A stretch of 62,349 nucleotides of DNA, filler included, from Sluysia triapertura (Eukaryota): assembly GCA_046118255.1 (NCBI GenBank). It is 5 parts of 5 records of this genome, joined end to end, with 100 filler letters (N's around TTAATTAATTAA, not from the genome) between each part and the next. Parts side by side here need not be neighbours in the genome. Positions count along the whole stretch, not along the records: positions 14,663 to 26,465 come from JBJNIA010169257.1; 4 more parts are not named here. One strand, written 5' to 3'. Made by a program: the position numbers and the translations under genes. Of this stretch, positions 3,900-58,028 are shown piece by piece. The notes under the pieces were generated by a model. The model had not been told where the DNA came from and did no database searches. It was given only the letters and a program-made list of their open reading frames with translations. The stretch's first letter is position 1. Every line of letters starts with the position of its first letter.

Positions 3900-4879
3900 T
3901 GTGACTTGACAACTAGTTAAATGATAACCATGAATTCAATAGGAAAATAGAATCATGTTTCAACATTTCCTGATTATTTTTCTAAATGAATGAATTCATC
4001 TTATAGTAAACATGAAATTACATTTGCAGCTTGTAATATCAGTTAAATTTCCTACTGAAATTAATTTTCAAATATTTTCCTCTTTAGACGTCATTATTTG
4101 TGTTATGCATGCAATGAACCTACTTATTACAACGATATCCCAAATAGTTATTTAAGTTTGAAACTGTGCGATTTGAATATTATTTTTAACGAACCTCGTA
4201 AGGAATTCTCTGACTAACATGAACAATGTAATAAAATTAAGAGGCATTGTTCAAATTTAGTAATTGTGTATAAAAAGGTTTTTCGTAATACATCACTTGT
4301 ATTTCGTTTAAATAATTAGAATTATTATTCTAACAAAGAGTATAAGAGTATGTAAAAGAGTATAAAGATGACGATCGTAAAGTTGAACATTATAATGATG
4401 GCAACGAGGTTAAACACTACAACGATAATGATTACCAATCTAACTATTATAAAGATTATGACCATAAAGTCAGAGAGTATAAAGATAATGACGAGGATGT
4501 AAAAGATTATAAAGATAATGATCATAAAGTTAAACGCAACAATAATGATTATCACGAAGTTAATGGTAGTAAACAAGATGCTTACGAAGCTAACATGATT
4601 GCCTTTTGTCCATTCGCCACAGATAATCATGGAATATGCATGAAGAATGGAATTTTTTGTCGTTATACCCACACGGCATGCGAATTGAGAATTACCGAAC
4701 TAGTCAAGAACTTTAGTTTATCGACAACGATACCTGTTAACAATAAATCCTTTACGAACTCTCTGAAAGTAATTTGTTTTTTGTAATTTATTATTGTAAC
4801 AATATTGTAAATTATGTTTGTTCTTCAGATAGCCGAACGTGCAACTTCAATGGAGATACATACGGAAGACGGAGTTTAA
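3900..4879 (+). pseudogene. Gene with 10-aa acidic repeats and an Unkempt-type CCCH zinc finger (family copy C); 5' part disrupted or unresolved
   Basis: Open frame ~4346-4768 carries (VKEYKDNDHK)-like repeats and CPFATDNHGICMKNGIFCRYTH (C-x9-C-x6-C-x3-H, 4607-4672); GT-AG intron 4769-4828; last exon ends at TAA 4879. Start coordinate is approximate. Confidence 0.6.
4352..4588 (+). repeat. Coding tandem repeat, ~8 diverged units of 30 bp (one of 27 bp)
   Basis: Units such as GTAAAAGATTATAAAGATAATGATCATAAA, all multiples of 3 and stop-free in one frame. Confidence 0.85.
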
Positions 4880-12170: not shown

Positions 12171-12308
12171 AGGTGCCACTTGGTATGGTTGACTATTCTA
12201 ATCTAAAAATTGTTAGACAGGGCTGATAGCTCAGTGGTAGAGCATCGAACTACGCAACGAGAGGTCCCGAGTTCGATCCCCGGTCGGTCCATTTTATGAA
12301 GTCTGACA
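12171..12308 (+). mobile_element. tRNA-Ala-derived element with inverted termini, copy 1
   Basis: TGTTAGAC(12211)..GTCTGACA(12308) encloses GGGCTGATAGCTCAGTGGTAGAGC..GTTCGATCCCCGGTCGGTCCA-TTTT; shares the upstream arm GTGCCA..TTGACTAT with the other copies. Confidence 0.85.
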
Positions 12309-14562
12309 AAAAGATTTAAAAGAATTCTAGACGAATCCTAGAATCCTAGCTTCTTACAGTGACTCTAATCAATGAAATTGGAATTTAGATTTTTAAGCTT
12401 TCCCGTTCACTCAGGCCATTTGTCCATAAAAATAAATTCTATTTGACGTATTTAAGAATTTCTAATATACCAATGGATTTATCTTTATTAGATTCAGTCA
12501 CTGAAGAATTAAATAACATTATTTTACTTTAGTTATTGAAATTCTACCAGCAATTAGTAATCAAAACCAATTCTCAGGTTTAACAAATTTATTTATTAAA
12601 TTATATTGAAATCACCTCATTAACTACAATTATGGAAATATTAAACTCTGTTAATTTTGATATTACTTTCAATTTTACAATTAGTATATATTGAACAAAT
12701 TGTGAAATTTCTCTTTAAAACCAAATATTAGTTGCAGAATAAGCATTTAATACATTAAAGTAAACAATATATTTTTGTGCAATAGCATTGTAAAATATTG
12801 TATTTACAAAATACATTAAAGACATCAAATTTCACGAAAAAATAGTTGCAGATAATAAAATTAATCATAGACTAGACTAATTTTTTAAATAAGAATGACA
12901 TATGGCCTTGTTTAAAATACCGATTCTATAAAACTGAGCCTATATGTTTTTTGTTAAGCATCTGGTGTTTATAGGTTTTACTTATTATTATTTAGTTTTA
13001 TCATTTGCTTGCAACTTAAATAACGAATTTTGCTCGGATTTTCGTTGCCTTAAGCGAAATGTAAGTGATAACCACTTAGAATTAAACCATTTCAAGTCAT
13101 TTACATATAAAAACAAATTGTGGTATTAAACAAGCAAGGGCAAATTTAGTTTACAGAAACCCAGATTATTATTAGTAAACCAAAATAATAATTAGTAATT
13201 CCACTTAGAATCGGTTATTTACAAGTTTATTTACATTAGAATTAGCATTATTAAAATCTTACAGAATTAAGTTATCAGATATTCACAATGGGCGTAGCGT
13301 TAGAAATTATTTTTTAATCGCATAAATAATTATATTATTTGTTCGAAATGGAGTCACAAATCTTGGTACAATATGTTGAAATAATAGAATAATTGAAAAA
13401 AGTTTTGAGTTTTCTATACTTTTAATTAATAAACGAAATGTAAAATGAACTTAATCTACAAAAGGTCTTAGCAAAAAAAACAATTAACTTTCTTTTATTT
13501 AAAATTTCTGCAACAGTATCTTTAATAATCACAATAACCTTAATAACCACAATCACAATGTTTCTTTGAACGAAACACGATTTCTACACTAAAGAAAATA
13601 AATATTGTGATAATTTGCAAACAAATTAAAGTCCATTGGAGGCTAAACAAACAATTGTTTTAAACAAAAAAAGAAAAAGTTAAGCACAAAACTTTTTAAA
13701 TCTATGATGTTTGAAATCATTATAACATTAGTCACTTAAATCTTATTCATAAAATTCTTAATATTAAAATATTTATAAGTTAAATGCCAGAATTCCTCTG
13801 ATCATAGGTATAGCGAGCAAAATCTTCTTTCCACATACCCACATGACCATGTCTATAATTTGTTACATCAGACAATGCCAAATTTTATAAATAAGATAAT
13901 TATGAGAGTTTATTGAAAAAACAATTTAGTTTTTTTGGTGAAAGCGTTATTTTGTTACAAAAACCAAGAACTTTAACTTTATCTTTTGAATAAATTAAAC
14001 TAACAAAATTATTAAAAACTTTAGGCATAAGGCCTTTTACAACAATTAAAAAGTTTAAAGTAAACAAATTAACCAATTTAACGAAACATATATTGAATAA
14101 AAAAGAAACAAACAGAACAATATATAATAACATACGTGGGTACATCAAAAGGTTCGATAAATAAATAAAAATTAGAAATATAGACTAACTAAAATAAGAA
14201 TTTTGACTTAATCGAAGCGAAAATATCGAAATATCAATGGGTACTAAATTTTACTAAGAGCAAAACGCGTAATCAACTTACTCCATTATTCATAACGCAT
14301 GTCACTAAAAAGCCAAAATGTGCTTCTAAATCATGCATCATTAAAAAACTGTTATGAATGTATTTAATGAAAACTCTTCATTCTTTCTTTAAACATTCAC
14401 AGAATGTGTCAATTTTCACATATTGTGAAGGACATCGAAAATGAAATCATATAGAAACCAAAAGCTTCACTGTTGAATTATCACAAATGAAAATCGCCAT
14501 TTGTTTAATTTATTAGTCATTATTCAATTCATCTAATCTGGCAGCCATTTTGTAACTATTTG

Positions 14563-14662
14563 NNNNNNNNNNNNNNNNNNNNNNNNNNNNNNNNNNNNNN
14601 NNNNNNTTAATTAATTAANNNNNNNNNNNNNNNNNNNNNNNNNNNNNNNNNNNNNNNNNNNN
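14563..14662. other. Artificial contig-joining linker
   Basis: N44-TTAATTAATTAA-N44, with stop codons in all six frames. Confidence 0.97.
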
Positions 14663-16195: not shown

Positions 16196-16330
16196 AGTGC
16201 CATTTGGTAAAATTGACTATAATAAAATAAATTTGTTAGACGGAGCTGATAACTCAGTGATAAAGCATCGACTGCGCAGACAGAGGTCTCGGGTTCGATC
16301 CCCGGTCAGTCCATTTTATGAAGTCTAACA
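16196..16330 (+). mobile_element. tRNA-Ala-derived element with inverted termini, copy 2
   Basis: TGTTAGAC(16234)..GTCTAACA(16330); A box mutated, B box GGTTCGATCC present; upstream arm GTGCCATTTGGTAAAATTGACTAT. Confidence 0.85.
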
Positions 16331-16885
16331 GATATATTTAAATAATTACTTCATACTGTTTAAATTTGTTTTAATGTTTTATATCTAACAGTTTGACAAT
16401 ACCAACAAAATTAGTTTCTAGGTTCCAATATTAAATTTCGTAACAGCTTTCTAAATGATTTCCAACATGAAAATTGAACTTCGGTACGATATTTAAATTT
16501 GCTGATGCACTTATGAATTTCCGAAAATTAAATTAGAAAAAGTAGATAAGGTTTAAAATGTGTTGAGCTAAAATATCTTAAACATTAAAAACAAAATTCT
16601 TAAAATATCCCTTATGTATTTGTTTGTATTATAAATTTGTAAGTACTTGTAAAATATTGTTTAAATATTTAATTATTTTATAAATTTATTTAAATTTAAT
16701 TTGTCATTAAATAATATTTACACATGAAAAATATTTTCCACAATAATATATTTTAATTTCTATTGCAATTATAATTATTATTTTTAACAATGAATATTTA
16801 AAATAATAATTGTAGAATCAAGATTGAGAAATTGTGATTTAAATTGTGCAAATATATATTTTGAATATTTGTCTTGATAAAATTT

Positions 16886-17721: not shown

Positions 17722-19183
17722 TTTATAATTAAGTTTCAAACTTCATACAAGTGTACCAAATTCTAATATAAATATTAATAAATATTATTTAGCATTTTCT
17801 TTCAGCAATATTTTATTTAATGGTTATTGTATGTTATTAATATTAGTGATGAAATTTATACTTAAATGTAATTTTAGTTCTATTATTCCTCAGTTTAAGT
17901 TTATTTTAATTGTCAATTTTTAGCACTACCTTCGCATCCTTTTATATAATGTTGAACTAAGCAGAAAGACTTCTTTATCCGGTATGACTTCAGTAATTAT
18001 TAACTTTCGATAAATATTAATTGTCTTCAAATGGTATTCGAGCCTATTCGCAGTACTCTGATGACTACTTTAAATTCTATCTATTATCTCAAAATCTTAT
18101 ACTAGAAACGGAGCGGTATTTTATGATGTACTAAATATGACTTATGCTAATATAGTTACAAGCTTAAGCTCTACAGTTAATTATTTGTGTGCAACTTCAA
18201 GACTTAGGTTTATTAAAATCTTTCCTTCGCATATGTTTTCTGTCTTAATAGTATATTAAATTTTTTAAACTTTCATCACTAATTATCTTCAGAAATTAAG
18301 AATTATTTTATTAATTAATTATATTGAAGTAAATCAAATTAAAATAACTAATAATAAAAAGGGCGGCACACAGATAGTGTTGTCGAAGCTTTATAATAAA
18401 ATTTAACTCTCAACTTTGATATACAATTAAAGTTTATAAAAAGGAGTCTAAAAAATGAGTACTTGAGAGATGCAGGAAGAATTAATACAAAATTATGGGT
18501 AAAAAATGATAAAATGTTGTTGGTGAAGGTGAAAGTATCTTATTGAATATGAGATTGTTATAAAAAGTATATCTATAAATGAACTTCAAATGTTTGTAGA
18601 ATGAGAATGAGAACCTTAAACATTATCCATTAGAATATTGGGTATGAAAAACTGAACGTGAATTGAATTTTAAAAATTAAAGCGATGGATAGCTGCTTAG
18701 ATACCAGCGAAAGAAAATCCAACTTGCATTTTAACTTATTGAGTGTAATGGAATAATTATGAAATAAGACGAACAGAATTCTCAGAGCAGAAATAGACGT
18801 TTTTAATAGCTGCATAATACTGAATAAAACAAAACGAAATAAGGTAATAAAGATAAAGAATATTTCGTAAGTTTTTCGCATTTGTAACTATGGCGACAGT
18901 TTAGGAAAATATTTTTATTTATAAATTATCCCATATTATTTATAAATTATTTATCAAACGAACAATAAAAGAATCAGGCACGTTACATATTATACTTAAT
19001 ATTAAGGGTGGTTGATCATCAGAATTCTTTAAATTTATCGCCCATAAAAAATGTACTTCTATAACGGATAAGATCATATTAGCAGCTTCGACATTTAGAA
19101 ATTCTATTCAACTTAAAATTAACTTACGCTTTACTGTGTGTATGTTTAGGTTCTATTTATTTAAATATATTTTAGTTAATTTT

Positions 19184-19521
19184 CACAACCCTTTTTAAGG
19201 TGATGTTAAACAAAAATATCACTTTATATTTACGCAACCCTTCTTAAGGTGTTGCTTTAAAAATAAATCAGTTTTAAATTTTAAATCAAAAATTACGCAA
19301 CAGTTAAGGTGTTGCTTCAAAAACAAATCAGTTTAATAAATTTGTTAAAACTAAAAACAGATTAACCCTCTTAAGGTGTATTATTTAAACTAAAAAGAAA
19401 AAAACCTTATAAAGTTTAATAAAAGTATAATAATGATAATGATTTTTATTCACGAACTCAACCTCAGTTGACAGTAATTTGATTTTAATAGTAAATTTCA
19501 CAACCCTTATTAAGATGTTGC
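19184..19521. repeat. Array of imperfect palindromes GCAAC-N12-GTTGC with a (C)TTAAG core
   Basis: Copies at ~19184, 19234-19255 (GCAACCCTTCTTAAGGTGTTGC), 19297, 19364 and 19500, plus TCAAC-N4-GTTGA at 19458. Confidence 0.85.
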
Positions 19522-20049
19522 ATAAAAAGAAAAATTAATTTTAGTATTCCCTAGCGGTGAATACGACACTCTATAACAAAAAATTACTTGGTATTCATGG
19601 ACAATAAATGGTTCATCAAAAAATTTTATTGAATCTTCAAAAAATCTTTACAAAGTGAATTCTATTTTCCTAGAAAAACATTTGTGTGTGTGAAAATTAA
19701 ATTATTCTTACCTTTTTAAATTGCTGTTCGCCATTTTTGTCCATTTAATTTTTTGATAAATTAAAACAAAATAATAAATTAAAACAAATTAAAATATTTT
19801 ATCAATTTATTTAATACTTTTTACAAATTAAACTATTAATTTATTAAAATTTTATTTCAAGTATTTATAATAATTATTTCAAAATATAAATTGAATATTA
19901 AAATATTTTTTAATAAATATTTATTTTAATATTTACAAACCTAACAAATATTAATTGTAATAAAAATAATATTTATATAATAATATTCATACAAAATATA
20001 AAAATAACACTATTTACACAAAATATAAATATAGACAAAATATATAATT

Positions 20050-21530
20050 AAAATTGAAACTTGGCAAATACTTTCCCTTTCAGGAAGATTCGTCCTCCAA
20101 TAAGATAAATGTCTAAAAAATTATTATAAACAACAAGCACATTATTATGATAATCAATTTAATGTCGGTTTAGTCTAAGTCTACAGAGTCGCTATCTTCG
20201 TCGAGGAGTTAGTCGAAACGGAAAAGTCATTGAGTGCCTTCATTGGCGTGAAATTTTCGAGAAAGCGGAGTAGAATGATGAATGTGTATATCAGTTTTTT
20301 GTTTCCGGATATTGATTGATTTTGGTGAGTGAGGTACGTGTGTTAATAATGTTGTAAACGAGGTTATACTTGCTGTTGTTGGCTGACTCGGTGGTGCGGC
20401 ACTCGTTGATGTTCAATGATTGTTCATAAGAGATGTCGTCTTTAATTTGTGGAGTGATGATCTCGAATCGGAAGATATTATAACAGAAGAAGTAGGAGAA
20501 GAAATAAGTTTTAACTTTTTTGAAGGAGGAGAGACAAGTGTGGATGAGTGTTAGAGTTAGAGGAACTTGATTTAAAAAGAGTAGGAGGGGCCTTGTTGCA
20601 ACGGGTAATAAATTGTATATCCTGTTCCCTAATGTAATCAAGCAGGGTCACCAATTCTGTGACCATCTGCCATCAAGTCAACACTGGCCAAATGGGAAAG
20701 GTTAGCCGCAGTGTTTGACACGTCCTGACAAAGATATTGTCGGTCGAAAAGGAATTAAATTATGGTTAGACAAGTTTATAATTCCCTTCATTAATCCAAA
20801 GGTAATATCCATATCCTCGATTATAAACTGGGGATTCTTGTTACGCAGAATCCCCAGGATTTGAGGGCGGACATCGTCGATGTCCTCAGCCTGTCTGAGA
20901 TCGACGTCCGTAACTACTGGTATATTGCGACGAAAATTTTGGATTCGACATCGTGGCTTAATACGGGCTTCGGTGTTTATTATAGGGGGTACAAGTGATA
21001 CAGATAATCTGCAGCCTGTTCAAACAATCTGTTTCATATTGAAATGCCACATATGCAGAGAGGGTTGGTACGTGAGTATAAGAGGAACCACTCTTCCAAC
21101 GGCTCATGTTAGCAACGTCATCAACAAAAGGGAGGAAAGAAAGGAATATAAGTGAGGTAGTGCAATGCTCCTGCTGTTACCTCAGAAAGATGTAGAGTTG
21201 ATAATTCCTCCAAACGCAACAACAATCGCTAAGGTCACTTTAATCGCTCCCGCACAGAGACTATATAGAGGGTATCAAAAGAGTTGGGAATGTTAAGAAG
21301 ATCACGTAGGGAAATAAAAGAGGAATCAGATGCCAAATTGTCTGTAAGCTCAGACTTAAGCTTACAATAAGTAATAAAAGAATTAGGAAAGAAGGTAGAA
21401 GTAGCATTAGTAGAACAAAAACTCTCTATTGCTGTATAAAAGGTTCTCACTTGATTAATTACTTTGGCCTGGGGTCGGTAATTGTGTTGTGATTGATGTT
21501 TTGATTTTTGTAAATTTGAACTGAAGTAAA
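20050..21530 (-). pseudogene. Decayed Gag-like gene: helical N-terminal region, RG-rich linker, zinc-knuckle remnants, S/P/T-rich tail
   Basis: Fragments RTFYTAIESF, VRERLK*P*RLLLRLEELS, KHCG..SHLAS, GHRIGDPA, PPSKKLKL and LLDEDSDSVDLD; GC content visibly above the flanks; no protease or RT follows. Confidence 0.4.
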
Positions 21531-21699
21531 ATGAATTGCAATAAATGACTAAGACAAAATAAAACAGTGTAACTATACAAGTTATTGTTATTATTTTAGT
21601 CTTTGTTTATTTAATCAATTTCATTTTAATAAACAATAATATTTAAAAAGAATTAATATTGCTTTAAAAATGGGTTATTGCATAGTCGTGTATTCTTCC

Positions 21700-22190
21700 T
21701 ATAAAATTTTTTAAGCTGGCGTATTCGGTAATTAGGCCTTTGCGATTTTTATTATTCCTGTCGGATAACCAGGCATTGGCACCTGAAATCCGTTATATAG
21801 GACATTAACGCCAAGGAAAGTTGGAGGCTGATAAATATCAACACTCTTATTCTCCTAAAGCCCATGATAGGCTACAACAAGAGTTAAGTTTGGTCTGATA
21901 TACTTTATGGTGAATTCGTAGGATCTACGAAAATATTTATTGTAATAAATGTCACATTCTGTAATTGTAACTCGACATAAAGGACAAGGAGGTAAAAGAG
22001 TTAAAGCGGAGTTAAATAAAAAATACAGACATCGAAAGTGGAAAGGTGTCTGCAAGGTATTGCGATGGCGTAATATTTGTGGATTGGTCTGCGGCATATT
22101 GAGCAAAGTGTAAATCGTAAAAAAGTGTCGTTTTGCTAAAAATAAAAATTATATGATAAGATAATACCTACATAAGAACGATCAATTAAT
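21700..22190 (-). pseudogene. RING-H2 finger gene with one frameshift
   Basis: CSICRRPIHKYYAIAIPCRH/FHFRCLYFLFNSALTLLPPCPLCRVTI (21975-22105) has C3H2C3 spacing; preceded by a ~35-nt GT-AG intron. Confidence 0.75.
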
Positions 22191-22299
22191 AAAATTAATT
22201 TAAATAGAACACTTAATATAGTAGTATAAGTTTATTCTAATTAATAAAATATGCATACACTAATTAAGAACTTACTCTAACTAAATGATTGACGCTATG

Positions 22300-23390
22300 A
22301 AGTATGTGATTTTAATAAAATATGAGCTTCAACACCATCCTACTCACAACCGAAAATGGACAGGTAACAGCCGTCACACATGGTTAGTGAACAGGAAAAT
22401 GCTATTACTCATATTTTATATCTTATATAATTTATACCTTAATGAAAAAATGATTCTTATAAATTAATAAAACTTATGAATTTGAAATATAACAAGTATA
22501 ACTGAAGTAACTAAGCGGAAACTTAATAAAATGTGATAACTAAATATAGAATGAAGTAGTATATATATAGTATAAATATAGTATGAACTTAAACGTGAGT
22601 AATTATAAGATTGTAGACTTATATTCTTATTTGGAATAGTAACATAATTGGTAGTTATAGCATTTTTTTAATATTTAATATACTTAAGGTGGTAGTGATT
22701 GTAGCTAGTGCTGGATAATTGATAATGTCTAAGTTGTCCAAAATTGCACACTTTATACTCCTGCCAAAATATAAGAGTATTGTGAATCTCATTGTAACGT
22801 AAGATCCAAATTTCAATAAATGTGAGATTATATTCTGGCATACAACAGATGAATACCGGTGTTGGGAAGTATTAGCGCATAATGTTGCTCTTTGCCAGAT
22901 AGTTCATCGAAGTTTTTTCTAGAAAGATTCTTTTTCTCTGATTCGTAACTAATTAATATGTTATGTTTCATTAAGGGATTTGATATATGAACAAATTTAA
23001 TAGTTGTCGAAAGTTTATTAAAAGTATATGGTTTTGTTCTAATTCTGTAGGTATGTATGGATTTAGTTTTTAAATCCCAATTTGTCATAAATTCTAAATA
23101 TAGAGTGACGTTAAATGATTGATTTTCCAAAAGACCGTCGCAAGAGACAATCCAGTATCTGGTGTATTTATTTATATCTGACTCAAAATTGCACTACTTA
23201 GTTAAACAACAATTCATTGTGATATTAGTAATCAAAGCAGTATTTCTTTGTGTTTTCCGTATATAGTGCGTTTTTTATAGTGCCTTTAATGTAATTCGTG
23301 GTTTTACTATTATCGGTTGTGTATGTACGTTAATTATACAAGTCATACATATACATGCCGACTTGACAGACTGTAAGCTAGTCATTTTCC
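22300..23390 (-). pseudogene. Decayed predicted surface glycoprotein-like gene
   Basis: ORF 22828-23130 extended upstream reads ..NITMNCC..RYWIVSCDGLLENQSFNVTLY..YRIRTKP, with several N-x-S/T sequons and an FN3-like beta pattern; inference only. Confidence 0.3.
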
Positions 23391-23620
23391 ATCCTCCATA
23401 TACTAAAGGTGAATGATTATTCGTTGCATATTCATAGACAGTCGGTGGTCTTACTGGGAATCCTGGTGGCGGTTCATAATTGTTTCTATGTGGAATGGTG
23501 TACTAATCGTCATCGTCGTTGTGATTGTATGGTAAACAGGGTTATCTACATCTGTTTGATACGAACATAATAATTGCGAGTATAACAATTGACAATGCAA
23601 TTGTTGTGGTAAAAGGCCTA

Positions 23621-23796
23621 AAAGTGCCAAGTAGTATAATTGAATATATTGAAAATGAAATAGTTAGACGGGGCTGATAGCTCAGTGGTAGAGCATTCGC
23701 ACTGCGCATCGAAGGTTCCGGGTTCGATCCTCGGTCAGTCCATTTTACGAAGTCTAACAATAGTCAATTGTACTATCATTATTCTAAATGGCTCTT
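23621..23796 (+). mobile_element. tRNA-Ala-derived element with inverted termini, copy 3 (both outer arms present)
   Basis: tRNA-like core at 23671-23742 with intact acceptor, D and T stems followed by TTTT; inner IR GTTAGAC/GTCTAAC; right arm ATAGTCAATTGTACTATCATTATTCTAAATGGC is the reverse complement of the family left arm. Confidence 0.88.
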
Positions 23797-24329
23797 AATA
23801 ATTATACGATTTATTAATGATTGTGATACTAGTATCTTATATTAATAAAACGTTATAAAAAATTTTAAGTATATATAGTAACCGTTAATTTACTTAAGAG
23901 AAAAAACTTATTAAGATATGACTTACAATTACAAGATGTGATTCAGACGATTACTACGTGCACTTTACATAAACAACAATCAGCTACATGGAAAAAATCA
24001 CAAAAATACATTACAATGTATCTCATTTACATCATCACATAACATTACAGTATTCACCACACTTTCAGCATTACATTTCAATTATAGCTACAAGATCATA
24101 AACTATAAACTTATAATTATCTCCAAGTCATCCCATCATCACTATAGCACTAAACCTTTCTCATATGTTGTATTTTATATTTTTATATATTTTATCGAGA
24201 AATTTATAAAAAATGGTCAAAACATTGACCTTATTACTAAAATTAGTTCTTCACAAATTTTTAAAATGAATAATTGGGAATTTTTGAAATGAACGAATAA
24301 GAATTTTAAAAATCGAAAAACAAAAAGGT

Positions 24330-25090
24330 TGACCAACATGACCTACAATTATGTTTTGAATAAAATTGCGATGCTGTATCGATATATCGGTTTGGACATT
24401 TCAGGTGGTGCGTTTGTTGCTTGGATTCGGTCGCCTGCTTGTTTGGATCTAGATGCGATGATGAACCTACAGTTAAAAGTCTGGATTGTATATCAACGTA
24501 TTAGTTTGGCTCAGGATGTGATGCACTACGAATCGTTCGAACCGATTTCAAATTTCAAAATGCTGAGTTTCATTTCAAGTCCGTTACACAAGTGGCATTT
24601 CAAAATCAGAATAATACACCGATATATCGTTTTGGATATGACAGACGATGTATATCTTATCGAGATTATTAGCTTAGATGTTTAAAATGCTGTAAAACGT
24701 ATAATTTTTGTTCACAAAAGATCTCCTACTGGTTCAGACCCAGATACGGTGATAAATTGACTGTTTAGAATTGAGATTATTAGTTTAGATATTGATAATG
24801 TTATAAAACTTATAATTTTTGTTTACACAGGTCACCTACCAGTGCAGATACAGAAGCTGTGACGAACCTACTTTTCGAAATTGAAAATATGTTATATAAA
24901 TTTATTAGGAAATATTGTTTTTCTTTTTACTATGACGAATATTTTAAATATCGTAAAACTTGTTAACAATGATTATTTGTCTTCTTTTAAAATCACTCCA
25001 TATATTGTGTACGAGAGAACGCAAGAATCTTCACATTCACGCACCAATACTTAAATTGTAAAAGGCAGACCACACCGACGCATAAATTAA
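24330..25090 (+). pseudogene. Disrupted gene of unknown function with internal duplications
   Basis: ORF 24329-24685 continues through stops; ~112-bp tandem duplication near 24660-24885 (IEIISLDV../IEIISLDI..) and repeated RYIxLD segments. Confidence 0.45.
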
Positions 25091-25429
25091 GATATAATAA
25101 TTTTATTTTAATAATGGCATGGTCTGCTATCTCAACCATAGAGATTATAATACTCCGATCCATTGTTCAAAGATACAGCCGTATGCATAATTTTCGCATA
25201 AGTTTTAGTACCTTTCATGATTTTAAATTTCGTTTCTTAATGATTAGTGAATTTTTACATTAGATAAAACTCATTGCTTTCTATGAAAGAATGAACTGTT
25301 TCATCGTGATAGCGCCATTGGAGTGGAGGTTGTCGATTTTAGAACTCCAAAACAAAATTTGTTTTATGGTCCTGGCGGTCACATATACATTACGAAGAAT
25401 CTTGGTCCAGGCTTCAAATCTCCATCACG

Positions 25430-25741
25430 TAATATGTTATTATTTTGTTTTCTTCAAAATTGACATGTGAACAATGTTATTTTATGCTTTTGTTTTGTGT
25501 TTGTGATAAATAAAGTCTTCATTATTTGTGTAATTATGATTTCAATACTGATAATAATAATAATAATATTAATAATAATAATAATAAATGTTCTGTGTGC
25601 ACTAAGCAGTCAATTAATACCTTTATAAACGTGTATGATAATCTGAATTTTAATGAATTTCATAAAATACATAGAGTTAAAAATAAAATACCATTCAGAA
25701 TATTATTGCATCAAATTAAATTTAATATCCTGTCATTTTAA
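25430..25741 (+). pseudogene. Decayed RING-variant/PHD-like finger gene with an Asn (AAT) expansion
   Basis: With frameshifts reads ICYY..VILCFC..CDK*SLHYLC..(N)n..KCSVC, i.e. C4HC3-like ligand order. Confidence 0.35.
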
Positions 25742-25778
<37 letters not shown>

Positions 25779-26465
25779 TATAATATAATGAAAAATTTAT
25801 GTGTTATGTTATTTAATATGAAAACAGCTTTCTGTATTTGTCTGAATTAAACTTTAAATTTAATACCTTACTTCCAAAATATTCGTAACTTTAATCGAAA
25901 TAATAATCGGTGCTTAATATCTGTCGCCATTCTATCCAAAAACACGTTTTAAAGTCTATTTCTTGTGTAGATAACATTTGTAAACAATTTTAGACAAATA
26001 TATTTGTAAGCTAGTTCTATTTGTAAATTAGTTCTATAATTTTGTAAATATAAATATTATTAATTTTTGAAAACATAAATTTTATTGTAATTTTTAATAA
26101 TTGTAGAATAATTACAAATATTAGTTCTAACAATTATGTAAATCAAAATAATCGCAATTAATCACTAATAGTTAATATTATTTATGTAAATTATGATTAT
26201 TAATTAGTGATAATTAACGTTTGGTAATTTTAATATAAAAACGTAAAAAACGTATAAAATTAAAAAATAATTTTAATTACAAACAGGAGTAATATTAAGT
26301 AAGCTAATATAAACATATGCATTGATAGGTTTTGCATCAAAATCCTACTTAAACTCACATTTATTAACAAATAGATTAATTAATTAAAATCTTAATTAAC
26401 TTAATTAAGAAAAATTACGTTTTTGTGAATAACTTTTGAATTCGGAATGCTATGTTAAATTCAAG

Positions 26466-30449: not shown

Positions 30450-31699
30450 AATACTTTTCTTCTATGCACATCAAGCAGCCTCATCAGTAATTGGACGTCT
30501 AAAATAAAATAAAAAATGAATTAAAGGTCGGACGAATAAAAAAATTAATTACATTATAAAACAGGATCTCGTTGTGTTTCTTTGTGCTTACTTCTGTTAA
30601 TTTCTTTTGGATAAATTCGCGTTCGGTTTGGTTATGTACATAACTTCGGTTGCACGATTGACAGATAACTGTTCTCATCGATTTAACAATGTCTAGACTC
30701 TCTTCTGTAGGACTGATTGTAGCGTTGACATATTTTACGATTAGACATGAATTATTATAGGTTTTCTGTAAACATTCAGTGGAAATATCTAGATTATCGC
30801 CGTTCGTAACAAAACTATTCTCTAATTCAAATTGAAGACTGTCTAGAATCATCTAAATTCAGCAATTGACATGGTGCACAATCCGTAGTAGTGCTTTGTG
30901 AAGTAACCTTAAAATGGTTTTCAATCATTATTTCATCATGATCAGGTTGAATTTTCAAATCATGTGTTATCAACATTGGATATTTACATTTTGTAATAGT
31001 CGTAACAATAGGTTTCGAATTAAGTAACTGCATCAACATTTCATATTCATGAACAAACATATTGATTATTGATACCATAACAGTATTTTTCTTTTTAAGG
31101 AACCAATTTGTCAAGTTCCAAGTCGTGGTCAAATTCTAACTCTAACGAACATGCCGGAATTGTTGCCCAATAAGGATAATCTTTATAAGTATTTGACGAT
31201 GATTGGTTTTTTAAATAAATACCAAGACAACACATTGAAGGACATGAACCATTTTGAGTTATTACCAACAGAGCATTAATCAGACAAATATGTAATTCCA
31301 GTTTATCTTTACTGTCATAAAATCGAAAAGCATCGTAAACTGGGATTATCATTAGTTGTAACTCTATGATAGAAACCATTTGTAGTGTTTGTAGAATCAA
31401 GATCTAAAATTTGGTAAAGGAAAAATCGACAGTGATTGAGTCTATTACGCAATGACATAGATGCTGCTTGATCAGTTGTATTTATTGTGTTGATATTAGT
31501 TTGATTTTTGGAATCAGTATGTATGTATAACGAATTGATCCATGAGATCGAATTGTACTAATGTATGACGGCTTCCACTCGAATAAGTATGCTGAAATTC
31601 TGAAAGGTAAGGATTATTTTTACTAATGATAGATTTTTTCTATGGTTTCACATAAAAAATAATTGAGAGAGTAGAAGAATCATGTAGTTTTTCATCCAT
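30450..31699 (-). pseudogene. Frameshifted ~400-codon gene, probable paralog of the CCCH family (copy A)
   Basis: ATG at 31699; three overlapping ORFs (31095-31400, 30827-31132, 30499-30852) linked by frameshifts; putative short 5' intron and terminal intron as in copies B and C; MRTVICQSCNRSYVH sits where the finger is expected. Confidence 0.5.
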
Positions 31700-32589
31700 T
31701 TTGTTTGGCGTTATAAATACTTTTTAAAATTCTTAAAAACTTTTATTTTTTAATTATAAAGTTACTTTACAAAATTTTGTATACAACATTAACTTGATTG
31801 GCCGACCAATCAGAAAACGCAAAAATTAATGATCAGTATAACACTGATTGGACGACCAATATTAAAGATTAAAAGATGAGCCACCATCAATGTTGACATG
31901 AATTCATATACAGTAATCAACAATGTCAGCATTGGTGATGGTAGATACTGATTTAGATAGTATATAAAATTAATGAAGGTTAATATTAATAATAATAACA
32001 ATAATGTTGGTATCATTACCAATACTAATTAAAAATAAAATATTTAAAGTGCATAAATTCTTTGTGAAGATCTATACATGAACTTTCTTTAATAATCTTT
32101 AATTTCTTAACATATTGAAAATTAGAGGCGAAGAAAGAATATGATATTTTATGATTAAGATATTTTATAAGATATATTATGATTGACAATAAAGTTCTAA
32201 TGTCAACTCTTTATTGTTAAAATAGCATTACAAGTTTAAATGTTATCGAAATGTATTTGATTATGGCCTAAATACCTTGAAATATTATTGTTGTGTTGTT
32301 CTGTAATGAGAGATACCTTACTTTGAATACTTTTTAATGTAGTTTTATAATTTAAAGTGTTATTATAGTTTATATAGATGAATTGTTTTGATGAACGTAA
32401 AGAAGATAAATGTGATATTGCTAAAATGTTAAGGAGTATAATATTATGTAGAATGTGTTGATTTGATGATTTTTGTAATGTAAAAAAGAAGGTGATTTTT
32501 ATAAAATTGAAAGGTTGACATTTAACTGTCATTTATTGACAGAAATTAACTTAGAAACCGTACACAGTGTATAATATACAATTTATTAC

Positions 32590-34320: not shown

Positions 34321-34957
34321 ACAAACTTCATTGAATTAAAATTATTTAGTTATATGTGAGAAATAAGACAATTAAAAGAAAGATTATGTATCAAAGAAAT
34401 TTAAAGAATTATACATTTTAATTATTATTACTATTTTTTTCAAATTATTATTACCATTTAATTAACGCTACCATTTTGAACAATAATCCAATTACTACAT
34501 TCTATCACCAGTCGACAGTAATTCAATTAAGTTAAATCAGCATTTCGTATAAACACACGACTGATGACAGTTACTGAGTGTACAGTATCATTTTTGCTTG
34601 TCACCATCCCTCTATGTCAGTTCTTTTAACTGCATTATGACAAACATACAGTTTTACAGTTTCATTGACACTAATATAGTAGTTCATTGGACGCCATATC
34701 AATTCTAGTTTTGGAAAATGTACTTTATGTTACTGTGATTGGACGTTCAATCAAAAGAGATATGACAATATGGTTCATTTAAGAAAATAACAAAATTTTT
34801 AGTACGCAATAATTGGTTTAAATCTATTTTTAAAAATTAATTATCCATACGTGCAATTTTAGTGTTATAAATTTTAATAAATAGTTAATACAAAGTGCGA
34901 ATAATTTTTAGTGCCAATTCACGTAAGAGACAAATTTAAGGTAATCTTAACCTAAGA

Positions 34958-36269
34958 ATGTTTTCTAAACAAAGATCACATCCAATTGTTTATGAAGATG
35001 CTTCGGGTTGGAATGAAATTAAAATAAACACGACAGAAAAATTAAACCAAGAGATGTCAAATAATTTTGAAACGTCCGATGATAAAGAAATAAAATCTTC
35101 TAATTTTCAGTTCATTGATTCATATCCTAGACGTAACACGTTATTTTGTCAATCTTCTACTATAATAAATTTATTTTCCAGACCATATTCTACCCTAGAC
35201 AAATGCGAAGTTCTAATTCAAATTAAACTAAATGTTGATGATTCATTTCTTAGTTTTTCGGTTTCTTCTTCAATGCTGAAAACATATTGCAATAAACAGT
35301 CATCATCAATTATGTCTCTAAATGATATAAGCAATTTCAATCAGTATACTGTACGAAATAATGAATTACCATGAGACATACACTCAAAACTTCATAAATT
35401 ATTGTGCCATTATATTTTCGTCAAAATTATACATAAAATCTTGTTTAAAAACGATGACTCAACTAATCTAAATTCTTGGGGATTTCTCCAGCCTTTGAAG
35501 GACTTTGTACAAGAAATTAATAGCAATACAATATTTTCATCAAGTATCGTAATCTCATGATTGTATTACATTTATAGTTAAAAGAAATTAATAGCTTAGG
35601 AATCGACTCTAACTTAGTGATTAAATTTTGTCACATCGTATTTACTAAATATTCCTCATTGCCTCAACGAATTCAGTGTGTGGAAATATTATTCTACGAA
35701 AGATAAAAGTATGAAAGGTAATACAATTCCTTCGGATTTCGACATATATAACATTGAAAATTCTCATGATAAAATCGCGGCAGATTACTCAATAGAACAT
35801 TATGTTACAAACAATTCCGCTACTTCAATCATCTCATCTATTACTTATGTTGTTCAAAGCCACAATATGGGAGTCTTTTAGAACAGCACAATGTCCACTC
35901 CAATCCAACAGACTATGTCAATGTAGCAAATTTGGACAATCATGTAAATTTTATCATACCATTAGTCAAATTAATAATATTAATACCAATCTAAATATCC
36001 TACACAACTACTTACAACGTCTCAATAATCTCATGAGTGACAAACCAAAGTAAATCAATAGATAATATGAATTATGAGAATGTTCCTGCAAATACTCAAA
36101 CTATTGCTTACACTACCGTCCTCGAACTTAAAGTAATATTAGTCTTTTATTTTAGAACGTTATTTAATCTTGATCACTTTTACTTCAGGAATCACCAACC
36201 AGAGAAGTGTACAGCTGTCTAGGATGCGAATATACTACCGAACATCAGGAGCGAATTACTAACAATTAA
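34958..36269 (+). pseudogene. Disrupted ~400-codon gene with an Unkempt-type CCCH zinc finger (family copy B)
   Basis: Collinear ORFs at 34958, 35678, 35802 and 36037; FRTAQCPLQSNRLCQCSKFGQSCKFYH (C-x9-C-x6-C-x3-H, 35892-35957); terminal GT-AG intron 36133-36188. Confidence 0.6.
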
Positions 36270-36604
36270 ACTTGATATAACCTTACATCTATGTATAAAA
36301 GAAACAAATTCATGTTTACTTTGTTCTATGTTTTATTCGTGATTTCATGTGTTTATAATTTTACTGATTTTAAACTGTGTAAATCTAAATTACAATAATA
36401 TAACTTTCGAATTGTTTTCTTCAAATTATAATGCAAGGATAACCTTATTAAAATCAGTCAAAATGATCTTTTATAAATCGATATTTTACAAACTTCTAAA
36501 ACCAATAACACTCCACAAATCAAACCCAAACTCATCTTAAATGCAAGTTTTAAAACACACATATCGTTCTATCTAAACTTGTAATTAATGATATTAATAA
36601 TTAC

Positions 36605-36900
36605 ATCAGTGATGGTGATATAATCGCTGATATTACTGATAAAAATATAGAAATGTTTTCTAGACTTGGTCGGGATGGCTTTTCTAAAAAAGTTTATATT
36701 AAAGTCGGATGGAAATTCAAGAACTATTTTGATTTGAATGGTAAGGTGTGGTTAGGTTTTTAAAGTTGCAAAGTTATGAGTCATCATATTATACAATGTT
36801 ATAACTGCCAATCTTTTGATCACGCGGCTCATAATTACAGATATAAATTAAATGATCCAACATGTTTATACTGTTCTAAAAACCAAAGACTTCCTATTTG
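36605..36900 (+). mobile_element. LINE ORF1 (Gag-like zinc knuckle) remnant
   Basis: GKVWLGF*SCKVMSHHIIQCYNCQSFDHAAHNY..PTCLYCSKN follows the pattern of non-LTR ORF1 zinc knuckles. Confidence 0.7.
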
Positions 36901-38535
36901 AATTTTATGATTATTTGGATGTTACCATGGAAAAAGCCAAAGAAGTTTTATTAACAGAAGATGTTAATAGAGAAATGAATGAATAATGTAAAACAAGTAA
37001 ACGATGAAACAAGTTTATTATTCAGACAGAATCAGATTTATCGATTTTGAATAAGGAGGTTACACTTTCAGTGCTTTGATATTGCCAATCATTTTAATGA
37101 ATTTGCATGTTGCTGTGATTGCTTCAGAAAGATCAATTTTGAATTATTTCACAAATATTATACTGAATGATTTATTTTAGGCGCTTTTGAGTACTTATTT
37201 TAGAGTAGATACTAGAGCAATATAAATTATTATAATCATTATCATTATAACTATTATTTTTCCTTTATTATTAATCAAGTATTTATTTATTTTTATTGCG
37301 AATTTCAAAGTTTTATTTGTGTATATATGGAATTCTTTTCATTCGAGAAATTTTTTATTTAAATATTTCTAAATTAGAATTTTCAAGAATATCGTTATTT
37401 ATACATTTCGAATTTTAAGTATTGAAGAAATTATTTTTGGAAGTTTGATAGTTGTAAAATGGGATAAATTTAAAAGTTTAAGTTCTAGGACTAAATATAT
37501 TTTTGATTGTTTAATTTTGAGTAGTTTATACCAATTTTTAGTTTTGTAAGTTTTAAGTATTAGGTAATCCTTTAAATAATTCGCATTATTAAAGGAATAA
37601 AAATAGTTCATATCTTGTATGATGTTTACAATTAGATTAAACCTTCGAGGTTTCAGTGTAGTAGTATTTAAATTAAGACTAGTCATCAAAGTGTTACGTA
37701 GAAAGATCTGCTGAATAATAGAAGTAGCTACGATTAGTTTGAACAATATACATGTAATATCTCCCAATATTACAATTGTTCGGTTTTCTCTTAACTCTTC
37801 GAACAATTATAAAATGCTAAATTTATATTTTGGGTCCGCCTACGCTAAACAATTTACCTATAATGGACGTTTACGTAGGATTTTAAAGCTTTGTCAAATG
37901 CTAGTTAAAGAATACTATGATCTTTATCTTTTCTTATTATAATATTCGATGCAACTCTGTATCAGAAATCTTTATTTTATAAAATCCTCTTTATGCTTAA
38001 TTAGTAATCCTTATATATTCTTAGTCCTTTTTAAAAATTAATTCACTTTAGTTTAAATCAATTCTTAAAATCTTTAATCAGTATTTAAATCTTCTTCTTT
38101 ATATCTTTAACAAATTAAAAAATTCCTTAATTAACTTTTAGTCTTTAAAACTTTGCACTTTTTGTTGATTTATTTGATAAAATTCTTATTCAATGATATA
38201 ATAAAAAGAACTCTGAATGTGGGAATTTTTATTAAATAAAAGAATTCGGTAAAATAATATAAACAACTTTAATAAGGTATATGACAATGATAAAATTCGA
38301 TAAGATAATATAAACAATTTTAATTATAATAATTTTAATAATAATATGTAATTTATAAATTTAGTCGGATTTTGACTCAAGAATTACTCGTGAGTTTTCT
38401 ATTAGTTGTGTGAAGGATTTTAAGTTTATTTTAAGACCGTTGATAATCGGGTCTAATACTTATGAATAAAAGCTTACTGAATCACAAAATACAATCGAAT
38501 GATCCGAGCAAGATAGGCCAAACAATAAACAGATT

Positions 38536-38730
38536 AAGCGGTTCCAAATAGCCAAATCGATTATACCAATGAGCGGTTCCAAATAGCCAAATCGATTATA
38601 CCAATGAGCGGTTCCAAATAATAGATTAATTATACCAATTGAGCGTTTCCAAGTAGTAGATTAATGATACCAAATGATCGATTCCAAATAATAGTTTAAT
38701 TATGCCAATTGATCGCAATCAAATATACCA
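38536..38730. repeat. 35-bp minisatellite, ~5.6 copies
   Basis: GAGCGGTTCCAAATAGCCAAATCGATTATACCAAT; units start at 38536, 38571, 38606, 38641, 38676 and 38711. Confidence 0.92.
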
Positions 38731-40415: not shown

Positions 40416-40880
40416 TTAGGTAGGTACATAAAATTGTGCGGTTTTATTTATTGCAAAGAAAACACATCAACTGATTTCAGTTATATTCATTCAGCCGAAT
40501 TATCTATCTAACATTTTAGACTAACTTTCACTTTTATTATCCTCATTAAAATGGAGTGTCAGGTAGATAAAAATTAACATTTCCGACATTTACTCCTTTT
40601 CTATTTTAATCCGCATTTAAACGCTTCAGAAGCCATCAGAATGATTTGTTGCGTTTCAAATCACCAAGCTTCTTCAAACGTGGGATTGAGGAACTACCAG
40701 AACAGTAGAAGTGATAGATTGTGGTGAAGAATATCTCATCGATTGCGACTGAGATATTTGCTTTTTGTAATGATTTAACAAATTCACATTGTTATCTAGA
40801 ATTTTGCATGGTTTTTATTCTTGATCAGTATACATTTTTCATAACTGTAAAAAAACCCACGATCTTATGCACCAACTTAA
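40416..40880 (+). mobile_element. Internally deleted mariner (DD34D) element
   Basis: TIRs TTAGGTAGGTACATAA / TTATGCACCAACTTAA; N-terminus MECQVDK..HFRHLLLFYFN joined to C-terminus FFKRGIEELPE..VIDCGEEY. Confidence 0.85.
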
Positions 40881-42110: not shown

Positions 42111-42146
42111 GCAATTATTTCTAGTTCACTTATTACATTAATATGT

Positions 42147-43392
42147 ATTAATATATTTAAATTTATGAAATAATTTATTTAAAATATAATTAAAATTTAG
42201 TGGCAACAAATCATTTTAAAAGATTGTTTTTGATGTAAGATTTAAAAATAAAAATTTTTTTTTAAAATCGAAACAAATTTTTAATCATTTATTTAAAAAC
42301 CATATCAAATTTTTAATTTCTTAAAATATTAGATAAATCCTTGTCTGCTTAATGCCTTTTCAATCCATCTCATATTTCTAAACCATCCAAACTATTCGGG
42401 GATTTCTAAAGATTTGTCCTATTTTATCTTTGAATCCTGCCCTCGTAGTGAGGCTGATAAACCCTGATAATTTCGATTTGAAATAGCTAAAGAATTCTTC
42501 AATTGGGTTAAGCTGAGGGCAATATGATGAGAGGAATATATAAGCTATGCTTATCTCAATAAATTTATTACCTCTTTGATGAAATTTACAGTTATCCATT
42601 ATTAAAACGTCATTTTTAAATATTTGAAAATGAGGTACAAGTTTTGTATTGATAAATGCTCCATCTTTTATTTCAAATGCAATGGTTCCGGAAATTTTTA
42701 TAGCAACCATGCAACTTATGTTTGTATTCCTGTTTCCTTTTACATTTTTTTGGAGAATAACCATAGTTTCTTACTTGGTGTAAGTTAATACGAGTCTCAT
42801 GCAGGAATACTAAAGAAGAATTTTCAACGTGTTCGATTGATATAGCATAAATTTGCCTTTCAGCAATATTTTTGTTAGAATTTCGTTCTAATGGAATTTT
42901 AACTAGCCTTTTCCTTGTAAATTTCAGTCTTGAGGATTCTTGAACTGAAATTTGAGTGTAGTGTGAAACCCTTCTGATGCTAGCTCCAAAACCAACTCGT
43001 TTTGACTGTAAAAGCTGTCTTTGAGAAGTAATGAGGAGATTTTGTTTTTTATTTCAGATCTTGGTAAGGGTTTTTCTCTCTTCGCTCCCAATATCTCTTC
43101 ATCACTTATATTATCTGCCATTTTTGCATTTATGTACGCATTTTTTGAAGACATATCAGCATCTTTATCAAATATCTTGCGTATTCTTCTTAATGACTCT
43201 GCAGTGATGGATTGTTTTTTTTCTAATTTTTCTGCCCTCATGAATATTTTTATCTGATAAGTTTGTTTAATTCTTATTCCATGGGAAAATTTAATAAATT
43301 TTTTATAATTAAAGGAATGTAAACCAAGATTTATTCTAAATTATTATAATCATATTTTAAATATATTATTTCATAAATTTAAATATATTAAT
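42147..43392 (-). mobile_element. IS630/Tc1-like DDE transposon with AT-rich ~45-bp TIRs, frameshifted
   Basis: ORFs 42924-43241 and 42378-42764 (VLIMDNCKFH..FLSSYCPQLNPIEEFFS); TIR ATTAATATATTTAAATTTATGAAATAAT.TATTTAAAATAT at both ends. Confidence 0.9.
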
Positions 43393-43519
43393 GTATAACC
43401 CTGTAACTTAAATTGAATATAAATCTAATCAAATATAAAATTTGTTTTCAATAATAATTTTTGATACAATATGCGACACGTTACATCAATTTCAATAACA
43501 TGTTTAGAATGGTATATAC

Positions 43520-45339: not shown

Positions 45340-45590
45340 TTACAGGATTTCGACCCTTATTTCAATTTTGCCATATTTCATTGCAAAAAGATTAATTAAG
45401 TTTTACAAAATTTGAATAAAAATTAATAATAAATGAAATAATTATAACAAAATTATTATAATTTTAATAATTATAACTATTATAAATTATAAATAAATAT
45501 TATAAATAAATAATTATTATAAATTTAATAATTGTAACAAAATTGAAATAAAGGTGGACAAAACTGAATAAAGGTGGAAACCCTGTAAAT
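45340..45590. mobile_element. MITE with imperfect ~30-bp TIRs (hAT-like CAGGG terminus)
   Basis: TTACAGGATTTCGACCCTTATTTCAATTTTG versus the reverse complement of CAAAACTGAATAAAGGTGGAAACCCTGTAA, around an almost pure AT interior. Confidence 0.65.
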
Positions 45591-45743: not shown

Positions 45744-46557
45744 TTTCAGTTTCAGATTCCGAATGCAGAAATGTTCGAACGGTTAGTTTTTCATTTTAAT
45801 TAAATATAATAATTCATCTTTATATTTAGCAACAATCATAAGATGCAGAATATAAATAGCAATGTAGATGTCGATAAATTTATCAATTTTAAGATTGAGT
45901 CAATTAACTAAAATTAACTTTTCTATTTCATGGAACATCTTAAACTTCATTAACGTTTTATATGCACATTATTTTCTGAAATTAATTTCATTGGATGAAC
46001 GAAGTGATACTCAGAAAAAAAACAAATTTTAAGCATCGAACATATGTTTTTCGATTTTCGAACTTTTACGAATATGAAAATTCGGTTATCATTAAACGGA
46101 AATTGCTAACTTAAGAAATATATTATGAAACGTACAATAAAATGGTTTGAAATATAGCTCAAAGAAGCGTTTCTTAACCTTTTTACTCTGCGATCCAATA
46201 AAATTTTTTCAGATTGTTCTGTGACCCAATTTTTTATTACATAAAGGAATGCTAAGAAATAAAAAAAGCCGCGGCTTATCCATGGAAACAAATATTTGAA
46301 TTTTTTAGCATTATTTATATTTATATCAGTTTAATGACTCTTTTTAACTTTATAAAGGTCACCATATTAAATCTTTATTTAAAAACTATGTTTAACTAAA
46401 GTTGTTTTAAAAGCCTCAGCTTATACACGGGATATTACGGTATATATTAATACATTGAAGACAGTATGCGATGAAAAGAATATATAGTCTGAATTTTCGC
46501 ATATATTTTCGAAATTATATAAATTAAAAATGATCATTTATTATTCGACTATATAAT

Positions 46558-49329: not shown

Positions 49330-49805
49330 TTGGGTTGCTGCATAAGTTCGTGCATACTGAAAATCATGCAAAAAATTCCAAATAACAAAATGACATTTAT
49401 TAAATCATTAAAAAAATAAATATCTCACACTCTCAATCGGTGAAATATTCTCCACCACAATCGATCTCACTTCCTTTCACCGTTCTGGCAGTTTTTCAAT
49501 CCCATGTTTGAAGAAGCTTGGTGATTTTTTTGTCGAAAAATTCTTCAATCCACGTTTTATTGCTTCTTTGTTTTCAAATGTGACACCAGAAAGATTGTTC
49601 TACATGGAGCGGAAAAGATGAAAATTTGTTGGGGCTGACTTTGCTAAATTTCGAAAACTACTTTTGTGCTGTTCGTTCACTGACTGCCTTTTGTTCATAA
49701 ATGTTGATTAAAATAGAAAAGGAGTAGATGCCGGAAATGTTCATTTTTATCTACCTGGCACTTCATTTTAATGAGGGTAATGAAAGTGAAAGTTAGTCTA
49801 AAATG
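49330..49805 (-). mobile_element. Second internally deleted copy of the same mariner family
   Basis: Minus strand MKCQVDKNEHFRHLLLFYFNQ, APTNFHLFRSM and FFKHGIEKLPER; TIR TTGGGTTGCTGCATAAGTTCGTG at ~49330. Confidence 0.85.
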
Positions 49806-57873: not shown

Positions 57874-58028
57874 TGTTAGACTTAATTAAATGGACTTACC
57901 GGGATTCTAACCCCGACCCTCTTACCTCACATTGTGCAGTCTTGATCACTGAGCTATCATAGCGGTCTAACAATTTTATTTTTTTATTATAGTCAATTTT
58001 ATACTATCATTATTCTAAATGGCACTTT
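57874..58028 (-). mobile_element. tRNA-Ala-derived element with inverted termini, copy 4 (diverged)
   Basis: TGTTAGAC(57874)..GTCTAACA(57972); reverse strand reads TGATAGCTCAGTG..CCCGGTAAGTCCATTT; full-length arm ATAGTCAATTTTATACTATCATTATTCTAAATGGCAC ends near 58025. Confidence 0.8.

Follow-up and report, generated by a model that had tools for sequence, protein, structure and literature searches.

An island of broken orphan genes in the genome of Sluysia triapertura (assembly GCA_046118255.1) combines two Cys/His fingers, AT spacers and a dispersed module that carries a palindrome array. We tentatively read this island as what remains of the accessory (cargo) part of a large, now dead mobile DNA element, of unassigned family and with several intron-bearing genes, in an animal whose introns are very short. 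The window, i.e., the whole stretch of 62,349 nucleotides that was analyzed (GC about 26%), consists of five contigs joined by N44-TTAATTAATTAA-N44 spacers at 14563, 26466, 39861 and 50902. As described in the initial annotation, the island sits on a single contig, contig 2 (14663–26465), with its formerly coding segments on the strands named there, and its right edge is the contig end.

The reading draws on coding signal in five of six segments and in a 116-codon frame, on the fact that every gene is broken next to an intact PGAM5 (flanking host gene at 16.9–17.7 kb), and on the array module, of which three loci occur within 62 kb, two of the copies having splice-like sites in corresponding positions. 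The initial annotation had taken the island for the relic of a mobile element or virus. A mobile non-host relic is plausible, because the genes are dead, compact and orphan and lie beside a dispersed module and an intact host gene; the treatment of the genes as one unit is not borne out, and the Gag, glycoprotein and virus labels are not supported by any tool.

Coding signal and decay

Coding signal was scored as the frameshift-aware minimum number of frame breaks relative to 100 dinucleotide shuffles, with segment limits set after the open reading frames (ORFs) had been seen. Five of the six island segments tested have fewer breaks than their shuffles: none of the 100 shuffles was as good as the real sequence for the membrane gene or for either of the two plus-strand genes, 1–2 were for gene C and 2–4 for the RING gene, and the antisense strands look random in break count. 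Point stops and frameshifts account for the breaks, of which introns explain few, and the genes are therefore dead; for gene C, missed introns were rejected as an explanation, since only two candidates exist, both at the 5' end. Break density (1.3–2.0 per 100 codons) agrees with the similar degree of decay noted initially, but not with the joint inactivation read into it, since unrelated relics in the window have decayed likewise (2.3 per 100 codons in a gypsy relic, 1.2 and 1.7 in orphan genes on contig 3), a match that allows joint inactivation without demonstrating it.

The short host-type introns and AT spacers of the initial annotation were both recovered: intron-like stretches in the island measure 29–42 nt, as compared with 33–35 nt for the introns of host genes in the window, and the spacers between island genes have 8–18% GC. 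Introns of this size are reminiscent of orthonectids or other reduced parasites, and PMC6543705 gives median introns of 57 bp in Intoshia linei and 27 bp in Dicyema. The host is an animal, to judge by an LSM14 exon in the window whose nearest solved chain is human LSM14A (E 1e-15); a transposase search, with 2 of 159 candidates, gave it no closer placement. Relative to host exons, third-position C exceeds G in the RING gene (p 4e-7), gene C (0.024) and the 116-codon frame (0.005), and the gypsy relic has the same bias (0.038).

Pfam returned no match for the six read-through frames of the island, and in a scan of 119 pieces (34 from the island, several in the wrong frame) the island matches were half of the RING motif and chance-level hits at E about 0.05. 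A further scan of nine pieces, several in the wrong frame, was blank, and one of five pieces matched at E 0.19 in a later one. PHROGs matched none of 30 pieces, and exact look-ups of ten proteins in databases found none. Other transposable element (TE) relics in the window, i.e., gypsy, Tc1-like, piggyBac-like and others, are still recognized by Pfam.

Two Cys/His fingers

Eight Cys/His ligands in RING-H2 spacing make up the RING-H2 E3 ligase domain, and all eight are present in the broken RING-H2 gene, spanning one frameshift between 22046 and 22040. The first half of the motif has weak Pfam RING matches (E 0.014 and 0.031), and three of four matches in the Protein Data Bank (PDB; E 0.19–0.95) are to chains whose names mark them as RING or E3 ligases, the fourth being yeast Rtc1, aligned over a Cys/His stretch. 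A word-indexed search of longer proteins with the second half of the gene gave none of 36 candidates. The ligands across the frameshift, with this weak Pfam and PDB support, uphold the RING-H2 gene of the initial annotation.

A second Cys/His finger had been noted among the divergent plus-strand genes, and the C4HC3 ligand order is indeed found there, with two spacings short. RINGv (MARCH-type) fingers have the C4HC3 order at canonical spacing and tend to precede two membrane helices. The label RINGv-like fits the ligand order but has no backing from canonical spacing or a Pfam call: in its spacings the finger falls between RINGv and PHD types and fits neither exactly, and the gene read in the correct frame matches no Pfam family. 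Neither finger pattern was seen in 500 shuffles, and each finger is the sole match to its own pattern within the window, with both patterns drawn post hoc.

A dispersed module with a palindrome array

A second long copy of the module lies on contig 5 at 59514–60120 (blastn 67% over 346 nt, E 1e-23; local score 375, shuffles 156 ± 12), and a fragment lies on contig 4 at 45907–45943 (as good in 0 of 200 shuffles). Both are without island genes, and this recurrence is absent from the initial annotation. The five palindromes in the island are spaced by 49, 60, 67 and 139 bp, out of codon register; their pattern has 6 matches in the window as compared with 0.03 expected, and in two of the five units folding is better than in shuffles (z −3.8 and −2.7). 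Differences between the two long copies are even across codon positions (8/7/7), as in dead or non-coding copies, and 32–47 of 100 shuffles equal the small spliced unit in break count, i.e., coding signal is absent. Of the small spliced gene ending in palindromes that had been proposed, the array and the intron-like stretch thus stand, and protein coding does not. The array as a set of coding repeats was likewise rejected, the spacings being mostly not multiples of 3 and the divergence even.

Both long copies come after a spacer of 7–9% GC. The spacer in the island (19790–20060) is probably a terminator plus promoter, and similar AT spacers occur at 59300–59514 and 2000–2190; homology of the island spacer to that on contig 5 is not above AT-rich controls. 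For this reason, and as no duplication was found, the module as a solo long terminal repeat (LTR) was rejected. Segments of similar style had been pointed out at 0–2.6, 37.3–39.7 and 59.1–61.3 kb, of which homology extends only to 59.5–60.1 kb, via the non-coding module alone.

Contig 1 holds, at 1400–2700 on the minus strand, an orphan gene, a 9% GC spacer, a short spliced-looking unit and two TTAA-core hairpins (1500–1585, 57 nt apart), in a layout that by eye is like that of the island left end. One or more broken orphan genes at 60180–61250 (minus strand), with a 33-bp tandem repeat at 61083–61170, are convergent on the contig-5 copy, and 350 bp upstream of the contig-4 fragment is a self-inverted AT-rich stretch (45350–45558, 70% over 217 nt). 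A broken orphan gene with long open frames at 30500–31700 (minus strand) has a palindrome just upstream (31795–31812), and a tandem array of 4.4 copies of a 35-bp unit at 38537–38712 is unrelated to the palindrome module.

Membrane gene, gene C and plus-strand genes

The initial annotation had described a transmembrane fragment with a Pro-rich tail followed by a sequon-rich glycoprotein. The former is present as a hydrophobic helix at 23560–23610 and a Pro/Tyr-rich stretch at 23428–23478 of the membrane gene, which continues into a long downstream region. The latter shows no enrichment in sequons (4 in 224 residues, P 0.28; 4 in 194 residues, P 0.08), and hydrophobic 19-mers are common in these AT-rich frames (31 across six frames). 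No Pfam family passed for the membrane gene, a PHROGs scan of its 3' part was blank, and the gene does not recur in the window itself.

Gene C had been called a Gag-like zinc-knuckle gene, an assignment that is not supported. A CCHC knuckle is found in no single frame, even with one stop allowed, the Cys residues and Gly-His residues falling in different frames, and nothing came of searches by sequence, language model or fold. Gene C has no Pfam or PDB sequence match, and its core has no usable match in the atlas and none among 81 candidates from a word-indexed search of longer proteins. One frame compared by phmmer with 1.84 billion proteins gave no match, with mid-query probably out of frame and mainly the ends covered. 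The single-sequence fold, i.e., strand-helix-strands, is of low confidence (predicted local distance difference test, pLDDT, 52), and had no match in PDB, BFVD or a wide PDB search (best Z 4.7, root-mean-square deviation 4.4, 95 aligned). By eye, the core has the strand-helix-strand layout of ORF1 in non-LTR elements.

Contig 3 carries, at 34940–36950 on the plus strand and just downstream of the gypsy relic at 32.6–33.9 kb, a run of broken orphan genes in one orientation: a CCCH finger (Pfam E 0.0025) comes first, and then an ORF1-like relic (36450–36900) with a knuckle at 36797–36823 and no recognized reverse transcriptase (RT). Gene C does not align with the knuckle relic, and its descent as a paralogue of the contig-3 genes was rejected (E 0.24 or worse).

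On the plus strand, the 116-codon frame is equaled in length in 2 of 1000 shuffles and belongs to no Pfam or PHROG family. The tandem duplication in the first broken gene carries intron-like stretches of 29–31 nt; this gene has no relatives in Pfam, PHROGs or the atlas, and its single-sequence model reaches pLDDT 39. A 15-nt start common to two plus-strand frames was rejected as a repeated motif, with 3 matches at up to 2 mismatches as compared with 2 expected.

Table 1 Features of the island and its right edge, in window coordinates
Feature	Position	Strand	Details
Dispersed module, ~630 bp	19159–19790	−	Short spliced-looking unit, then palindrome array
Five imperfect palindromes, ~20–22 bp, TTAA-containing core	19186–19520		Repeat family D1
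Intron-like stretch, 42 nt	19670–19711	−	Donor and acceptor match contig-5 copy 59612–59651 (40 nt)
Near-pure AT spacer	19790–20060		8.5% GC; T-rich then A-rich on minus strand
Gene C, broken orphan	20170–21625	−	38% GC; Ser/Pro-rich tail; coding signal relative to shuffles
Broken RING-H2 gene	21665–22135	−	Motif 21975–22105; 32-nt intron candidate 22136–22167
Membrane gene, broken orphan gene or genes	22290–23620	−	Coding signal relative to shuffles; at least 9 breaks in all
tRNA-derived dispersed repeat	23623–23799	+	tRNA-like core 23671–23742; inverted arms; separate insertion
Stop-free orphan frame, 116 codons	23942–24289	+	Divergent from minus-strand block; absent from initial annotation
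First plus-strand gene, broken orphan	24338–25263	+	111-bp tandem duplication 24659–24890
Broken gene with C4HC3 finger	25264–25738	+	Finger 25466–25600, one stop; AAT run inside gene
Artificial contig join	26466–26565		Cuts island here

One element or several

If the island is the cargo region of a DNA element, each gene would have been its own transcription unit, with AT spacers acting as terminator plus promoter and transcription diverging from about 23.8–23.9 kb. Sense-strand micro-introns and two-way transcription favor a DNA intermediate over one of RNA. The imperfect palindromes may have been bound by a dimeric replication or recombination protein that the element encoded, and have marked an origin or end, and short derivatives with the module alone could have spread more widely. 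The cargo, i.e., RING-type ubiquitin ligases and a small Pro/Tyr-tailed membrane protein, might have acted on host ubiquitin-dependent membrane traffic. The mobilizing enzyme would lie beyond the contig end or be supplied in trans, and the tRNA-derived repeat would have inserted later.

Several results weigh against this reading. When the island was compared with the other four contigs by tblastx, only the module reached or exceeded the control maximum of 31.3 bits; the recurrence check proposed in the initial annotation, carried out within 62 kb, thus recovers the module and no island gene, and phmmer with 17 island pieces against all six window frames gave nothing better than E 0.02. At the contig-5 copy, which is without island genes, homology ends at the module and the neighbors differ, and the hairpins on contig 1 do not align with the module. 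The search for termini and target-site duplications, also proposed initially, found neither terminal repeats, inverted or direct, nor a target duplication at the island, the contig being cut at 26465. No hallmark mobility or viral gene was recognized in the island, and because the contig ends at 26465 the lack of pol is little informative. Furthermore, the island genes differ in GC (26 to 38%), and the C-over-G bias is absent in both plus-strand genes (p 0.85–0.89) and non-significant in the membrane gene (p 0.18). With only the module recurring, no termini and uneven codon bias, the within-window evidence for unity comes down to regular spacing and a common theme.

The best of the alternatives is a patchwork, i.e., a repeat graveyard made up of an independent non-autonomous palindrome element, the tRNA-derived repeat, and unrelated dead genes or TE fragments, which we regard as less likely than the cargo region, though close behind it. 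One insertion, that of the tRNA-derived repeat, is proven, the module occurs elsewhere without island genes, composition varies between island blocks, the window also holds the gypsy, Tc1-like, piggyBac-like and other relics, and the chance of three co-oriented genes is one in four. A patchwork does not, however, account for the tidy head-to-tail spacing with short AT spacers, for Pfam still recognizing the other TE relics and not the island genes, or for two ubiquitin-ligase-like fingers within 4 kb, each the sole window match to its pattern.

A retroelement relic is improbable. Gene C would then be the ORF1 or Gag in a giant Terminon- or Burro-like accessory block, or in a Gag element lacking pol, 5' truncation of which would have left its 3' end, the module, in excess. 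Short module copies do outnumber the long one, Terminons are mostly 5'-truncated and have accessory ORFs with membrane domains (PMC6431247), the gene C core is ORF1-like by eye (with the strand-helix-strands model at the pLDDT given above), and contig 3 holds its knuckle-bearing ORF1-like relic without a recognized RT. Gene C, however, lacks both a CCHC knuckle and similarity to that relic, there is no hammerhead core or Rfam ribozyme, no RT adjoins the putative 3' end and no poly(A) tail follows the array, and the genes are divergent with introns in sense. Improbable too is a host pseudogene cluster, i.e., lineage-specific RING ligases and membrane proteins of a fast-evolving parasite genome beside an unrelated repeat, which would suit the host-length introns, the presence of comparable broken orphans on contigs 1, 3 and 5 and host proteins that may be absent from databases (as the exact look-ups allow), but not six adjacent genes that are all dead beside an intact host gene, nor a codon bias unlike host exons in three of the six.

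Were the genes to travel with the module, the island would represent, in a lineage that has been poorly sampled, either a new family of giant mobile elements that carry cargo or the remnant of an unknown animal DNA virus, and the module would be a ready probe for intact copies; three module loci in 62 kb suggest, by extrapolation, a high copy number. Were they not to, the locus would be an ordinary repeat graveyard, and its only new items would be two unannotated non-autonomous repeat families. We consider it a long shot that the island, the modules on contigs 4 and 5 and the layouts on contigs 1 and 3 together represent undescribed, once-abundant large intron-bearing DNA elements or endogenous viruses of a reduced-genome animal lineage, with palindrome origins like the homologous regions (hrs) of viruses, ubiquitin-ligase and membrane cargo, and proteins without relatives among 1.8 billion representatives. 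In the literature searched, mostly open access, we found no report on endogenous viral or capsid sequence in Intoshia or on pol-less Gag elements with RING fingers.

Other repeats and relics in the window

The tRNA-derived repeat, which lies directly upstream of the membrane fragment and is absent from the initial annotation, has four copies in the window, at 12173–12320, 16197–16342 and 23623–23799 on the plus strand and at 57864–58030 on the minus strand. The copies share a 5' leader of about 50 bp, and in three of them short inverted sequences flank the core; in the copy at 23623 the inverted sequences form long arms. The repeat is more like a foldback element than a plain short interspersed element.

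Another dispersed repeat occurs at 40427–40815 and 49360–49905, in mutually inverted orientation and 81–84% identical, and a Tc1/IS630-like transposon relic with 64-bp inverted ends (DDE_3, E 1e-9) lies at 42133–43406. At 4346–4783 (plus strand) an acidic repeat region is followed by a CCCH finger (zf-CCCH_UNK, E 1.5e-7), the second such finger in the window.

Comparison with known systems

Polinton/Maverick elements are characterized by pPolB, an integrase, a capsid, an ATPase and long terminal inverted repeats; none of these hallmarks was recognized in the island, and there is only one possible end on the contig. HeT-A, HAL1 and MaLR are pol-less Gag elements. The island would share with pol-less Gag elements (TR-GAG) a possible Gag/ORF1 without pol, Gag identity not being established for the island, and to our knowledge HeT-A, HAL1, MaLR and TR-GAG carry no multi-gene intron-bearing cargo. 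As to paired LTRs, no second module copy and no duplication were found on the island contig, which is cut at 26465. The non-LTR order, i.e., ORF1, endonuclease-RT and tail, is not seen: after gene C come an AT spacer and the module, no RT was recognized, and no A-tail extends past the array.

A Helitron ends in a 3' hairpin closely followed by CTRR and is inserted between A and T; the two module copies have no CTRR end in common whose distance from the last hairpin is short and fixed. The island resembles gene-capturing Helitrons (PMC6431247) in that one end has short hairpins, the gene pieces are co-oriented and bear introns, and no target duplication was found. Unlike Helitrons, it has no recognized RepHel, which non-autonomous Helitron copies also lack, and its cargo matches no known host genes.

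Burro, a giant gypsy element of planarians, would share with the island ubiquitin-related and envelope-like cargo in an invertebrate mobile element (PMC6431247); it is, however, a single huge polyprotein, with LTRs enclosing its Gag, env and pol, whereas the island has separate small intron-bearing genes and no LTR pair. Terminons, i.e., giant Penelope-like elements, share with the island several accessory ORFs, membrane domains and a repeated end module with truncated copies (PMC6431247). Unlike Terminons, the island shows neither a hammerhead motif nor an RT, its array is without a telomeric repeat, and its gene block is divergent. A hammerhead ribozyme was rejected, since Rfam gave no match but tRNA at E < 0.5 and neither strand of the three arrays has a core motif, although decay could hide one. 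Among the Pfam matches in island frames there is no Penelope-type RT, the contig ending at 26465.

Baculoviruses and other Naldaviricetes commonly have RING genes, and the island has an hr-type array of imperfect palindromes, a feature that is not virus-specific. Genes of the double-stranded DNA (dsDNA) virus core, i.e., DNA polymerase, PIFs, LEFs, capsid and packaging ATPase, have no Pfam match in the decayed island with its cut contig. Unlike Naldaviricetes, the island is thus without a recognized core viral gene, and it has host-type micro-introns and module copies on separate host contigs, beside host genes. According to PMC12548425, palindrome arrays serve as origins and enhancers in invertebrate dsDNA viruses; the hrs of baculoviruses and other Naldaviricetes are, as in the island, spaced imperfect palindromes between compact genes, and endogenous Naldaviricetes relics carry stops and TE insertions, as the island does. 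Ubiquitin-related cargo, in turn, is known in giant planarian elements (PMC6431247). On its cut contig the island shows the defining features of no known family and, by analogy, appears to resemble either hr-bearing invertebrate dsDNA viruses or cargo-rich giant elements.

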